Shown: positions 340 through 29,899 of the stretch, piece by piece
Numbering within the stretch: position 1 is the stretch's first letter
Layout: every line of letters starts with the position of its first letter
Assembly (NCBI GenBank): GCA_049322295.1
Contig: JBMORO010000040.1
Coordinates: 33,960 to 65,959, forward strand
DNA length: 32,000 nucleotides
From: Patescibacteria group bacterium
GTDB lineage: Bacteria; Patescibacteriota; Minisyncoccia; RBG-13-40-8-A
Reading direction: 5' to 3'
The notes under the pieces: generated by a model
The model's database searches: none
Told to the model about the DNA's origin: nothing
What the model saw: only the letters and a program-made list of their open reading frames with translations
Translations under genes and position numbers: made by a program

Positions 340-475
340 CCCCGTACTAGATTTTCGACATTTAAAATGTCGAAAATATTAGATTAACGATTAATTTAAT
401 TATTCTATACTTTGATTATACCCCGCGTCCTTTTGGTCCGATGTTCATCGGACCAGTCGAAAATTCAGTACGGGG
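340..475 (-). mobile_element. Family A MITE-like element, copy 1 (136 bp) between the rpsH stop and the rplF start
   Basis: Terminal inverted repeats are CCCCGTACTAGATTTTCGAC (340-359) and GTCGAAAATTCAGTACGGGG (456-475). Direct CATA repeats flank it at 336-339 and 476-479. It is homologous in sequence and architecture to 4021-4158 and 20202-20341. Confidence 0.7.
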
Positions 476-479
476 CATA

Positions 480-875
480 TTACCAAACTCTACACAAAAT
501 CTCTCCGCCAACACCTCTTTTTTTTGCTTCTTTAATTGTCATTAAACCTTGGGAGGTCGACAAAATTATTATGCCTCTTTCTTTAATAAACTTTCCTAAT
601 TCCTTCTTGCCAATATAAATTCTTTGACCTGGTTTGCTTACTCTTTTTAACTCCTGAATAAATGGTCTCTTATTTTTATTATCTTTGTATTTTAAAACGA
701 TTTCTATATCTCTTTTAACCCCTCTTCCTTTTTTAGAAACGCTGCCTATATAACCTTCGGAATTAAGAATGTTTGCCATTTCAAATCTTATTTTAGAAAA
801 AGGCAAATCAACAGTTTTATGACCAACTGCCTGAGCATTTCTAATTTGGGTGAGCATATCAGCTATAGGATCCAT
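480..875 (-). CDS. rpsH: 30S ribosomal protein S8
   Basis: 131 aa starting MDPIADMLTQIRNAQAVGHKTVDLPFSK, a canonical S8 N-terminus. It sits in spc operon order. Confidence 0.97.
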   Translation of the reverse strand: MDPIADMLTQIRNAQAVGHKTVDLPFSKIRFEMANILNSEGYIGSVSKKGRGVKRDIEIVLKYKDNKNKRPFIQELKRVSKPGQRIYIGKKELGKFIKERGIIILSTSQGLMTIKEAKKRGVGGEILCRVW

Positions 876-879
876 AAGT

Positions 880-1065
880 TTACCAGCTACTTTTCTTGAT
901 GCCGGGAAGCTCTCCCCGATTGGCTAATTCTCTAAAACAAATTCGGCACAAACCAAATTTACGCATATAGCCATGCCTTCGGCCACAACGAAAACATCTT
1001 CTCACTGTTCTGGTGGAAAATTTGGGGTTTTTCTTTGATTTTGCTATATCAGAAATCTTGGCCAT
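880..1065 (-). CDS. rpsN: 30S ribosomal protein S14, type Z (zinc-ribbon form)
   Basis: [19 protein letters not shown]...[23 protein letters not shown] carries the CxxC...CxxC motif of short S14. The ORF-track start at 1080 (MTEGNM-) is a TTG read-through of the leader. ATG at 1065 gives the expected 61 aa. Confidence 0.93.
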
Positions 1066-1101
1066 ATTCCCTTCAGTCAAAATAAAATATTAAATATAAA
1101 A
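1066..1101 (-). promoter_or_regulatory. Conserved translation-initiation leader motif (rpsN copy)
   Basis: Minus-sense TTTTATATTTAATATTTTATTTTGACTGAAGGGAAT precedes the ATG. It is 34/36 identical to the sequence before rpsG (12008-12043). The proximal TTGACTGAAAGGAAC is also found before rpsL. Confidence 0.5.
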
Positions 1102-1156
1102 TATAAAAAATTTTTAAGTTTTTAATATGTGTATTTTATTTTTGGTTTTTTATTTT

Positions 1157-1690
1157 TTATTTTTGTAATGGAAATCCCATTAATTTGAATAATTCTAAAG
1201 CTTCTTGTCTAGTTTTGGCATTAGTAACCACTGTTACTTCTAATCCAAAAATTTTCTTTATATCCTCACCAATAAATTCAGGAAAAATAATTTGTTCTTT
1301 TATACCAATGGTTAAATTTCCAGACCCATCAACAGATTTAGAAGACAATCCTCTGAAATCTCTACTCCTTGGCAAGGCAATGTTTATTAAACGGGAAATA
1401 AAATCAAACATTCTTTTCCCTCTCAAGGTAACTTTTAAGCCTACTATTATACCTTTTCTTATTTTAAAAGCTGAGATAGCCTTTTTAGCTAAAGTCGGAA
1501 TTGGCTTTTGCCCAGTAATTAAAGCCAAATCTTTAGCCGCTAAATCTCGGGACTGATCATCTCTTGAAAGAGTTCCGATACCGGCATTAACTATTACCTT
1601 CTCAATTTTGGGCACGGCAAGATTATTTTTATAACCAAATTTTTCTTTCATTAATGGAATAACTTCTTTTTTGTATTTTTCTCGTAACAT
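1157..1690 (-). CDS. rplE: 50S ribosomal protein L5
   Basis: 177 aa starting MLREKYKKEVIPLMKEKFGYKNNLAVPKIEKVIVNAGIG, an L5 signature. Operon order fits. Confidence 0.97.
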   Translation of the reverse strand: MLREKYKKEVIPLMKEKFGYKNNLAVPKIEKVIVNAGIGTLSRDDQSRDLAAKDLALITGQKPIPTLAKKAISAFKIRKGIIVGLKVTLRGKRMFDFISRLINIALPRSRDFRGLSSKSVDGSGNLTIGIKEQIIFPEFIGEDIKKIFGLEVTVVTNAKTRQEALELFKLMGFPLQK

Positions 1691-1691
1691 A

Positions 1692-28310: not shown

Positions 28311-28315
28311 AAGAT

Positions 28316-28384
28316 GTCTACAAAACTACAAATAATTACGAATATACAAATTTGTATATTTGTAGAAATTTGTATTTCGTAGCC
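28316..28384. repeat. Family B palindrome, copy B5
   Basis: GTCTACAAAACTACAAATAATTACGAATATACAAATTTGTATATTTGTAGAAATTTGTATTTCGTAGCC abuts the TAA at 28385 and ends 5 nt before the pilB GTG. Confidence 0.75.
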
Positions 28385-28702
28385 TTAATAAGGTATAAAA
28401 GGGTTTTCCCGACCAGTGGTTCCTTTTTTCACCGGTATATTGCCGTGAATCTTCAAAAATGATAAAATCTTCTGATTTAAAAACTCAAAATCTAAATTAA
28501 TCCTTTTCAATTTTTCTTCTAAGATAGCTGGCAATTGTTCTCCTTCGCCTTCAGGAGAGACTGGCTGAGATTCCGGAGGAACAACTTTTTCTTTTTTCCA
28601 AAAACCAAAATATAAAACCAAACCAGTGATTGCAAAAATAACCAGGGCTACAATTAATAAAATCTGCTGACGCTTTCTTTGTTCCAGGGATTTAATGGGC
28701 AT
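28385..28702 (-). CDS. Small single-pass membrane protein of the pilus operon (PilP-like position; family not recognised)
   Basis: 105 aa with one TM segment (ILLIVALVIFAITGLVLYFGF), a Pro/Glu linker and a C-terminal ...GRENPFIPY. It sits between pilO and pilB. Confidence 0.6.
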   Translation of the reverse strand: MPIKSLEQRKRQQILLIVALVIFAITGLVLYFGFWKKEKVVPPESQPVSPEGEGEQLPAILEEKLKRINLDFEFLNQKILSFLKIHGNIPVKKGTTGRENPFIPY

Positions 28703-28712
28703 ATATTATATA

Positions 28713-29270
28713 TTATTGATGATAAGTAATTAGTCTTACCTCAAAACCAAAAACCTTGCCTCCCTCCTTTGATTCGGTAGTAAATTCTACGGAATTAATA
28801 TCTAATAGACGAAGATTTTCCTCTACAGATTTTAGAAAAGCTTTAAAAGCCTCGTAGCTGCCGACTATCTTCATGCTAACACTCATGGTTTTATAAGTTA
28901 CAGCCGGCTTCTCCGTGAGAGTAGCTTGAGGCACGCGGGACTCTTCCTCTTTAATAGTTATGATATCAATATTTTCCAATGATAAACCCTGTTCAAAGGC
29001 TAGGGCTTCAAGTTGAACAATTAAGTCAGGAATTTTTTCACCAGAAGGTAAAATATGGTCTATTTTTTCCACGCTTTCTTTATTTTCTTCATAAGCCTGG
29101 ACTAGTCTTTCTACTTTGGCAAAAAGTTCTTGTTTATCTAAAAGTTTTTCTTTCTCACTGGCTATACTTTTTCTCAATTCTAAAATGTTCTGAACCCCTG
29201 GCACGTCCAAAAAAACAACCAGGGCTATAAAACCTAATATTAAAATTATAATAATAATATTCTTAATCAT
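28713..29270 (-). CDS. pilO: PilO-like pilus alignment protein
   Basis: 185 aa with an N-terminal TM, a coiled coil and an alpha/beta domain. It follows pilN with a 4-nt overlap. Confidence 0.7.
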   Translation of the reverse strand: MIKNIIIIILILGFIALVVFLDVPGVQNILELRKSIASEKEKLLDKQELFAKVERLVQAYEENKESVEKIDHILPSGEKIPDLIVQLEALAFEQGLSLENIDIITIKEEESRVPQATLTEKPAVTYKTMSVSMKIVGSYEAFKAFLKSVEENLRLLDINSVEFTTESKEGGKVFGFEVRLITYHQ

Positions 29271-29824
29271 TTATTTTCTAATAGAATCTCTCTAGAAAAA
29301 GTAATTGAAAGATTAAATTTTAGTCCAGTTTTCTCATCTAAAGAAATTCCAGAAACCTGGGTTCTTTTAACAAATGAGTCTTCTTGAAAGCTCAAAATTT
29401 GGCGAGCTAAATTAGTATAAGTTGAAGTATTGCCCTCAAGATTTAGTTCAAGAGCAACACCGGAAAGATTAAACTTGGCCTGAGAGAAGTAAACCTCAGG
29501 GATAGTTAATTCTTCTATTTTCTTAAATAAACTCGACCAATAAAGATGGTTTTCAAATAAAGTTTTTAGATCGCTTATTTTTTTATCCAAATCTATCATT
29601 GATTTCTCGATCTTGGGATTTCTTTTACTATTTAATGTTCTTATCTCTTCTTTAATATTGTTCCAATCATTCTTTAAATTTTTTTGATATAATAAAAGCC
29701 CACCATAAAAAAGTAAGCTCAAAATAATTAGAGTCAAGATTATTAAAGTAGCTTTAGAAAAAATTATTTTAAATCCTTCTTTTTTTTCTCTATATTCTCT
29801 TGGAATTAAATTAATATCAACCAT
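29267..29824 (-). CDS. pilN: PilN-like pilus alignment protein
   Basis: 185 aa. MVDINLIPREYREKK is the conserved PilN N-terminal INLLP-type motif. It is followed by a TM segment and a coiled coil. Confidence 0.8.
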   Translation of the reverse strand: MVDINLIPREYREKKEGFKIIFSKATLIILTLIILSLLFYGGLLLYQKNLKNDWNNIKEEIRTLNSKRNPKIEKSMIDLDKKISDLKTLFENHLYWSSLFKKIEELTIPEVYFSQAKFNLSGVALELNLEGNTSTYTNLARQILSFQEDSFVKRTQVSGISLDEKTGLKFNLSITFSREILLENK

Positions 29825-29829
29825 AAGAT

Positions 29830-29899
29830 GTCTACAAAATTACAAATTAGTACGAATTTACAAATTTGTATATTTGTAAAAAATTTGTATTTTGTAGCC
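29830..29899. repeat. Family B palindrome, copy B6 (pilM stop to pilN start)
   Basis: GTCTACAAAATTACAAATTAGTACGAATTTACAAATTTGTATATTTGTAAAAAATTTGTATTTTGTAGCC. The proximal flank AAGATG-GTCTACAAAA is identical to that of B5. Confidence 0.75.

Follow-up and report, generated by a model that had tools for sequence, protein, structure and literature searches.

In a 32,000-nucleotide (nt) stretch of a Patescibacteria group bacterium genome (GenBank assembly GCA_049322295.1, contig JBMORO010000040.1, positions 33,960 to 65,959 of the forward strand; hereafter the window, meaning this whole stretch), ten features lie between the stop codon of one gene and the start codon of the next. We conclude, with a probability of roughly 0.7, that they are non-autonomous mobile palindromes of three unrelated kinds which inserted into very short intercistronic spacers. 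The kinds are family A (copies A1 to A3), family B (B1 to B6) and a single-copy palindrome of 84 nt between rpsQ and rplN, i.e., three unrelated palindrome types and not two with a stray hairpin. Orthologous junctions with and without an element show palindromes of all three kinds to be insertions, as judged from sequence, and insertion into tiny spacers is the main explanation of the geometry that they share: it follows from spacers of 1-12 nt, from a family A target-site duplication that contains a start codon, and from survivorship.

Filled and empty sites

At the rplV-rpsC junction the window reads TTTTAAattatTATG, then the 138 nt of A2, then TATGGGTCAT, and the empty site of the relative L032, whose tuf product is 95% identical in amino acid (aa) sequence to that of the window, reads TTTTAAatttTATGTCTCAT. 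The empty site has one TATG and the filled site two, and the single TATG in L032 confirms the target-site duplication of family A. The 84-nt palindrome is absent in L032 and L046, where rpsQ ends in ...TGGGTAGTnTTATAA and the rplN ATG follows after 7 and 1 nt, respectively. At tuf-rpsJ the site of B2 is filled in the window, L032, L073 and L143 and empty in L140 (6-nt gap). Some sites are filled in relatives and empty in the window: nrdD-nrdG has a family B copy in L045 (nrdD 89% identical) and a 12-nt gap, TAAtttagtagccctATG, in the window (16689-16700, minus strand), and the rpsL site has a family A copy in L005 and none in the window. Among the orthologous junctions of close relatives, empty-site stop-to-start gaps measure 1-12 nt; given such ancestral spacers, an insertion that spares both genes cannot end more than a few nt away from the stop or the start.

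The empty nrdD-nrdG spacer of the window includes TTTAGTAGCC, which resembles one terminal family B unit, and this gap is possibly a one-unit remnant left by deletion of a B element.

Positions, geometry and folding

The elements, the duplications that flank family A copies and the TAG stops next to family B copies are at the following window positions (aa, amino acids; ORF, open reading frame).

340-475, minus strand: A1, family A, 136 nt, rpsH/rplF junction; termini CCCCGTACTGAATTTTCGAC and GTCGAAAATCTAGTACGGGG
476-479, minus strand: 5' target-site duplication copy of A1, TATG; decoy ATG, 1 nt after the rpsH stop (480-482)
336-339, minus strand: 3' target-site duplication copy of A1, TATG; holds the rplF start codon (338-336)
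2387-2470, minus strand: third palindrome, single copy, 84 nt, rpsQ/rplN junction; termini GCGACAC and GTGTCGC
4021-4158, minus strand: A2, family A, 138 nt, rplV/rpsC junction
4159-4162 and 4017-4020, minus strand: flanks of A2, TATG and TATG; rpsC ATG at 4019-4017
7481-7630, minus strand: B1, family B, rpsJ/rplC junction; four heptamers per arm, tip split by ~85 nt of extra sequence
7985-8053, minus strand: B2, family B, junction of tuf (stop TAG, 8054-8056) and rpsJ (GTG, 7977-7975)
20202-20341, minus strand: A3, family A, 140 nt, between a gene for a 115-aa pseudopilin-like protein and the HtrA-like protease gene
20342-20345 and 20198-20201, minus strand: duplication TGAA of A3
24904-24971, minus strand: B3, family B, pilT/pilC junction, GTG start
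26049-26113, minus strand: B4, family B, pilin gene/pilT junction, decayed
28316-28384, minus strand: B5, family B, 105-aa ORF/pilB junction, GTG start
29830-29898, minus strand: B6, family B, pilM/pilN junction
8054-8056, 24972-24974 and 26114-26116: TAG stops upstream of family B copies

The distance from the stop codon to the element is 4 nt for A1, 9 for A2, 6 for A3, 5 for B1, 0 for each of B2 to B5 and 8 for B6; from the element to the start codon it is 1 nt for A1 and A2, 3 for B1 and B4, 7 for B2 and B3 and 5 for B5 and B6, and A3 overlaps its GTG. The arrangement that the initial annotation had described for the nine A and B copies, in which 0-9 nt separate the stop from the element and 0-7 nt the element from the start, is thus real, and its individual distances agree with ours apart from that between B4 and the start, given there as 2 nt and measured here as 3. 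Together, the family A and B elements make up 931 of the ~2230 non-coding nt in the window.

When the minimum free energy (MFE) of each element was compared with that of 200 dinucleotide-preserving shuffles, z-scores were -5.5 (A1), -4.9 (A2), -7.3 (A3), -7.3 (B1), -6.8 (B2), -7.7 (B3), -6.5 (B5) and -5.2 (B6), and for each of these eight copies 0/200 shuffles folded as well. B4 gave no folding signal (z = 0.0; 93/200 shuffles fold equally well); its start-proximal (3') arm retains four heptamers and its stop-proximal (5') arm is degenerate. The rpsQ/rplN hairpin as first delimited (2381-2447) was not significant either (z = -1.8; 12/200 shuffles as good). This hairpin is the inner part of the 84-nt palindrome (MFE -37.5, z = -6.0), which ends 6 nt before the rplN ATG (2380) and for which we found no consistent target-site duplication. 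The earlier remark that the rpsQ stop lies inside the hairpin is correct, and the cause is that the palindrome inserted at the end of rpsQ, whose ORF now reads on into it and stops at an internal TGA (2441-2439). Stems measure ~20 base pairs (bp) with 1-2 mismatches in family A and ~30 bp with internal loops in family B.

Family A inserts at start codons

A terminal-pattern scan with one genome per species found copies of family A in five metagenome-assembled genomes (MAGs), and a profile search of the retrieved loci added two more. There are 12 independent copies in at least five Patescibacteria genomes (the copy in L010 duplicates that in L017): three in the window, six, at six loci, in Candidatus Portnoybacteria RBG_13_40_8, and one each in Falkowbacteria, Berkelbacteria and unclassified Patescibacteria MAGs. 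By its sequence features family A is shown to behave as miniature inverted-repeat transposable elements (MITEs) do: it is 133-144 nt long (about 137), has no ORF, occurs as dispersed copies that are present or absent between relatives, and has a 20-nt terminal inverted repeat (TIR), CCCCGTACnnnnnnTTCGAC / GTCGAAnnnnnnGTACGGGG, in all 13 copies (the L010 duplicate included), with compensatory changes in the TIRs of the A2/A3 subfamily. The sequences flanking it read as a 4-5 bp target-site duplication, and they co-vary from copy to copy: TATG/TATG in nine copies (one of them TATG/CATG), TGAA/TGAA in A3, TGGAA/TGGAA in L017 and TATGA/TATGA in L004.

All 12 copies adjoin a real ORF (78-418 aa) at +1 or -1 nt and in the same orientation, and the start codon of that ORF always comes from the 3' repeat, with the element ending 1 nt before the ATG. 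A3 and L017 are the cases with an offset cut, where a new GTG start arises from the element's terminal G and the TG of the duplication; in A3 this is at 20202-20200, and the former ATG (20346-20344) is now a decoy. Upstream of most copies there is a same-strand stop 0-29 nt away. Since the copy in L005 is still flush on the rpsL ATG with a tRNA-Pro and a 94-nt leader upstream of it, and that in L018 lies in a divergent gap, both sit on an ATG without an upstream ORF; the invariant of family A is therefore the start codon and not the stop-start pair, and duplication of TATG explains this.

The composition of the window bears on how often such a target would be a start. T stands at -1 in 30/39 window starts (77%), and sense-strand TATG occurs 26 times at starts, twice elsewhere in non-coding sequence and 92 times in coding sequence, with four non-coding occurrences on the opposite strand; the 26/28 sense-strand non-coding occurrences at starts leave out the family A duplication copies. 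The target of family A is shown to be the immediate context of a start codon, A/T-rich sequence followed by T-ATG-purine. Targeting of TATG combined with loss of in-gene insertions predicts adjacency to a start codon in ~81% of surviving copies, and against this expectation 12/12 is unremarkable (P = 0.08).

Upstream of the 5' duplication copy the native context of the gene is preserved, and the decoy ATG of this copy opens an upstream ORF (uORF) of 4-42 codons that begins MPRTEFST... in most copies; that of A1 has 20 codons and extends into the element, and six copies have a uORF that ends at the TAA within a conserved internal GGGGYATAAT. We rejected the idea that the uORF encodes a conserved peptide, its length ranging over 4-42 codons and its frame shifting with the duplication offset. 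The long-range fold pairs one TATG copy with the other. Both TIR halves, ...ACGGGG and TTTCGACAT, also recur inside family A, so that two local hairpins can compete with the long-range stem.

Family B is a heptamer array that fills short gaps

A metagenome scan with the central pattern of family B returned at least 120 loci, which hold at least 78 non-redundant copies. The element consists of four heptamers TAC[AG]AAT followed by four inverted ones, grouped 2+2 and 2+2, with outer ends CTAC...GTAG. Among the matches listed, the 48 copies with resolved context comprise 42 tandem, four convergent and two divergent ones; since 76% of gene pairs in the same loci are tandem, enrichment for tandem gaps is at most slight (Fisher p = 0.05). 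In the tandem cases, again among the matches listed, the median distance is 4 nt from stop to element (interquartile range 2-9) and 8 nt from element to start (interquartile range 5-10), and the median residual spacer of 11.5 nt is an ordinary spacer size. Twelve copies among these matches have a residual spacer of at least 20 nt, and they show no start-side bias (five nearer the start, four nearer the stop, three equidistant). Family B, unlike family A, simply fills small gaps.

The gaps are found at junctions of ribosomal-protein and elongation-factor genes (rplV-rpsC, rplE-rpsN, tuf-rpsJ, rpsL-rpsG, fusA-tuf, rplN-rplX, rpsH-rplF, rplW-rplB and the rpoA/rpsD/rpsK region) and at nrdD-nrdG, pilT-pilC and ftsA-ftsZ, and occupancy of these junctions varies from genome to genome. 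In some of the lineages ribosomal proteins are only 40-55% identical to those of the window, and this divergence and the different junctions occupied make family B widespread and dynamic. Among the matches listed no consistent direct repeat flanks the CTAC...GTAG ends of the 42 oriented copies, i.e., the duplication expected of a MITE is missing, and family B occurs in both orientations, with the GTAGAC end on the start side in ten copies and on the stop side in two, several of which are orthologous and do not represent independent events.

Heptamer pairs are separated by spacers of 3-4 nt that lack complementarity (0.30 observed, 0.41 in shuffles), and the conserved object in family B is the heptamer array with its internal loop and not a continuous stem. 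Decay is symmetric on both arms. A cargo of 1.1 kb lies between two family B arms in L046 (1-1213, minus strand). It encodes DNA_alkylation (PF08713) and PDDEXK_3 (PF13366) proteins and separates rpsN from the gene that follows in the ribosomal-protein operon; translation of the left arm gives the first cargo protein an N-terminal extension, its first ~21 residues. This and B1 show that the hairpin tip is variable and can bear cargo. The ~85-nt tip insert of B1 contains a terminator-like G+C hairpin (7515-7545, minus strand), which has a stem of 14 bp, ATTAAATACCGGGTAGTGCCCGGTATTTAAT, and then a T-rich tail and is the best terminator-like hairpin of the first 13 kb.

Two further ideas on family B were rejected: remodelling of the tuf C-terminus by the element (C-termini are equal in length with and without it) and a role of the heptamer like that of a dispersed uptake sequence (outside elements TACAAAT is found twice, against a mean of 11 for 7-mers of the same composition). 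In L116 (~850-945) tuf and a family B copy are separated by a further G+C-rich hairpin, CAGGGCACAGGAGCGCAGGTTCCTGTGTCC; this junction holds one more type of palindrome beside family B. The metagenome contigs L001 (3998-4046) and L046 (position 1) end inside family B copies. The exact tuf product of the window was found on a single 4-kb Logan contig, whose end lies in B2, and the exact pilN product in no record.

Shine-Dalgarno motifs and tolerance of insertions

Shine-Dalgarno (SD) motifs are nearly missing across the genes of the window, the exceptions being the GAAGGGAA leaders of rpsL, rpsG and rpsN and an AAGGAGG before the ORF at 13658. The initial annotation had found no SD-like tract in the spacers left between elements and starts, and had added that many other starts lack one and that the ORF at 13658 has a perfect AAGGAGG; all of this was borne out. 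The absence of SD motifs is, however, a genome-wide property and not an element-specific one, and for that reason it does not single out the elements. An anti-SD motif is present in only 48% of Parcubacteria 16S sequences (PMC9297842). In an SD-poor genome it is understandable that a transposon end that replaces the 20 nt upstream of a start codon is tolerated.

As a reason for this tolerance, translation initiation in the lineage would be independent of SD pairing, and ribosomes that end the upstream ORF or translate the decoy uORF of family A would open part of the 5' arm and so free the downstream start. When the stop and 13 nt, the stretch under a ribosome at the upstream stop, were masked in our folding model, the start region became more likely to be unpaired (family A, from 0.20 to 0.36-0.44; family B, a gain of 0-0.12), and we infer that ribosome traffic may unmask the real start. 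A stronger version would make family A a start-codon-homing element that neutralises its own insertion (the native context drives the decoy ORF, whose translation melts the 5' arm and unmasks the start), and A and B together obligatory coupling or processing modules within the ribosomal-protein operons of SD-less Patescibacteria; we regard this version as quite doubtful. If it were true, initiation could work 1 nt downstream of a -46 kcal/mol stem.

Alternative explanations

The initial annotation had suggested that selection in this genome tolerates or exploits insertions that keep stop and start close together in the fold. Tolerance stands, as palindromic insertions occupy spacers of essential operons in the window and in relatives; there is no support for selection on three-dimensional termination-reinitiation, the empty sites measuring 1-12 nt and no sense-strand signature being seen. 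A selected translation device, whose fold would bring the stop and the next start together for shunt-like reinitiation across the stem base, is in our estimate very unlikely. It would agree with an SD-poor genome, with the frequency of the elements in highly expressed essential operons and with the distances themselves (stop 0-9 nt from the 5' stem base, start 0-7 nt from the 3' base, as also in the 42 tandem family B copies among the matches listed), but gaps of 1-12 nt yield this geometry by insertion alone, and the device is made less likely by family A copies that lack any upstream ORF, by family B copies in convergent and divergent gaps, by junction occupancy that differs between close relatives, by the non-complementary spacers of family B and by B4, which is unfolded and still in place. 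The survey of hairpins against stops and starts, carried out in relatives and metagenome loci, likewise found the close spacing to recur, but with convergent and divergent copies and only a slight excess of tandem ones. Nor does family B have a sense-strand bias. At the purine/pyrimidine positions of paired heptamers, where A.C is what G.U becomes on the antisense strand, G.U (19) is not favoured over A.C (24), and sense and antisense MFE are equal (Wilcoxon p = 0.69); to judge from their G/A and C/T differences, the two arms seem to have undergone CpG-type decay independently. As for other RNA or DNA functions, the Rfam search at the gathering threshold returned only the tRNA-Pro, and E-value scans gave chance matches only; the main stems of A and B were not called as terminators, the insert of B1 (7545-7515, minus strand) alone being terminator-like. 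Promoter function was rejected (37 promoter-like sites in 1-13000 against 37.8 expected, none at the family A GGGGYATAAT), as was carriage by phages, viral-contig scans with the family A and B patterns giving chance matches only.

The stems might also serve as putative sites for RNase III or another double-strand RNase, which would leave short SD-less leaders and could coexist with a mobile origin. At ~20-30 bp they are long enough, they are co-transcribed by position and the starts behind them lack an SD, but pairing is not conserved in a strand-specific way, the decayed B4 is tolerated, the window has no rnc gene, and the family B stems are AU-rich and broken by conserved internal loops; we consider such processing rather unlikely. 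Somewhat easier to entertain, if still unlikely, is that family B is a DNA-level protein-recognition array, either a recombination site folded as single-stranded DNA (like attC, or like REP [repetitive extragenic palindromic] sequences mobilised by REP-associated tyrosine transposases [RAYTs]) or an operator, with the heptamers as the functional unit. Its heptamers are conserved across lineages with ribosomal proteins only 40-55% identical and its spacers are not complementary, its arms decay symmetrically about a variable or cargo-bearing tip (B1; 1.1 kb in L046), and its CTAC...GTAG ends have no target-site duplication; no associated recombinase or transposase was found, however, the neighbouring genes are no cassettes but core genes whose order is conserved, and the heptamer is not enriched outside the elements. 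By analogy, family B is similar to substrates that are recognised as DNA, such as foldback, REPIN or attC-like ones. That the elements are AT-rich low-complexity palindromes without a common origin, in coincidental positions, has practically no probability: although the genome is AT-rich (~35% G+C) and B4 and the short rpsQ hairpin fold no better than shuffles, the z-scores of -4.9 to -7.7 with 0/200 shuffles as good, the alignment of each family across genomes, the co-varying target-site duplications and the empty orthologous site in L032 rule it out.

Several points weigh against insertion of mobile palindromes as we propose it. No autonomous partner (transposase) was found for any of the three palindrome families, and among 146 loci no TIRs flank a transposase. 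The orientation of family A is fixed (12/12, binomial P = 5e-4), which a symmetric TIR/DDE model does not explain and which implies asymmetric target recognition or selection on internal sequence; its duplication length varies (4-5 bp). Empty and filled sites of family B do not align cleanly and show no duplication. The metagenome scan required an intact central palindrome, so that its sample is biased to intact elements, and gene contexts in its loci were taken from the longest ORF on each side, an ORF-length heuristic and no gene finder. The computed effect in the melting model is only modest. GTG starts are found at 4/9 elements and 1/30 starts elsewhere (Fisher p = 0.007; window positions 7977, 24896, 28310 and 20202), and TAG stops in 10/24 cases within 5 nt of family B among the matches listed, compared with 8/40 window genes (~20%; p = 0.02-0.09); both enrichments hint that element ends interact with codons.

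At these ends, an out-of-frame TAG also precedes B6 and the copies in L053 and L111, and the 5' end of family B may read TAGnCTAC. The sequence after family B is often ACAnnnTTTGTG, like a degenerate extra heptamer. The start of nrdG is ATG in the window, where there is no element, and GTG in L045, where there is a B copy.

Other features of the window

Nearly all genes of the window lie on the minus strand, and its G+C content is ~35%. The nearest genome in the reference collection is the MAG Candidatus Portnoybacteria RBG_13_40_8, with synteny over rpsL-fusA and tRNA-Pro-comEC-nrdG at 74-81% nucleotide identity. This places the window in a Patescibacteria genome (Parcubacteria, Portnoybacteria-related).

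12560 down to 1, minus strand: rpsL, rpsG, fusA, tuf, then S10/spc ribosomal-protein genes to rplF
31922 down to 13865, minus strand: type IV pilus cluster (pilM, N, O, B, T, C, D, pilins, pseudopilins), HtrA-like protease, nrdD, nrdG, comEC
1063-1124, 12005-12066 and 12543-12604, minus strand: copies of the repeat D3 leader

The HtrA-like protease has Trypsin_2 and PDZ domains. D3 is a fourth repeat, an AT-rich conserved leader of ~60 nt that ends in TTGACYGAAGGGAAYATG and lies directly upstream of rpsN, rpsG and rpsL; no other ribosomal-protein gene of the window has an SD-like purine tract before its start, and in the relatives L032 and L046 the rplE-rpsN spacer is occupied by a family B element in place of the D3 leader. 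We counted only two protein-coding ORFs on the plus strand, a stand-alone one of 65 aa (13647-13855) with a perfect AAGGAGG 5 nt before its ATG, for which a Pfam search gave no match, and the adjoining 210-aa Peptidase_M50 ORF. The comEC gene consists of two overlapping minus-strand ORFs, 14686-15993 and 13865-14767 (within 13865-15993), which could reflect a frameshift, a split gene or an alternative start.

Implications

What had the appearance of a translation device is largely the footprint of insertion, and the two are told apart by empty sites, co-varying duplications and strand-symmetric pairing. The points that remain unusual are the start-codon target of family A, its strict orientation and its decoy ATG, and the occupation of essential ribosomal-protein junctions in SD-poor bacteria; we found no earlier description of such elements in Patescibacteria or the candidate phyla radiation in the literature searched. 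Family B is a heptamer-array foldback found across distant lineages and inside ribosomal-protein, EF-Tu/EF-G, ftsAZ and type IV pilus operons. Since rplF, rpsC, rpsL, rpsJ, rplC and rplN lie directly downstream of very stable stems and lack an SD, they are natural experiments on initiation. There are also practical consequences, as family B repeats apparently break short-read metagenome assemblies (L001, L046), and decoy ATGs and GTG starts can mislead the calling of start codons.

Comparison with known systems

Two known mechanisms, the coupling of translation by melting of a hairpin and the ribosome shunting of caulimovirus 35S RNA, have a stop immediately 5' and the next start immediately 3' of the stem base, as the elements do. 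The elements differ in that there is no evidence that the stem is required or selected, the geometry following from insertion into gaps of 1-12 nt. In the Correia elements of Neisseria a mobile origin goes together with RNase III processing.

Among bacterial MITEs (Neisseria Correia CREE/NEMIS, pneumococcal RUP and MITEAba12), family A has counterparts that are likewise small and non-coding, with TIRs of ~20 nt, a short duplication, many diverged copies, presence or absence between relatives and co-transcription by position. It is unlike them in that its 4-5 bp duplication contains the start codon, that every copy adjoins a start in one orientation and leaves a decoy ATG and uORF, and that its hosts are Patescibacteria and its sites include junctions of ribosomal-protein operons. 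We know of no parent insertion sequence (IS) for family A; presumably, a link to the IS1380 family is possible, given that family's 4-5 bp repeats and CC ends.

Family B shares with integron attC sites an imperfect palindrome that fills the stop-to-start spacer of co-directional ORFs, conserved unpaired spacers, a variable tip and, in L046, arms that flank promoterless cargo genes. It lacks the R'/R'' core (GTTRRRY), however, its ends being CTAC/GTAG and not RYYYAAC/GTTRRRY, no integrase is present, and it is flanked by ribosomal-protein, pil and fts genes, which are core genes of conserved order. With REP sequences, bacterial interspersed mosaic elements (BIMEs) and REPINs, which depend on RAYTs of the Y1/HUH type, it appears to share an intergenic palindromic doublet with GTAG/CTAC ends and no duplication, a frequent location inside one operon and the equivalence of both strands. 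No RAYT was identified for family B in loci of up to ~14 kb, and it differs from these systems in being made of eight AT-rich heptamers with conserved unpaired spacers, in place of a G+C-rich imperfect palindrome, and in that its tip can bear cargo. Our verdict is that the elements are MITE-like (family A) and foldback/REPIN-like (family B), with an unusual start-codon target.

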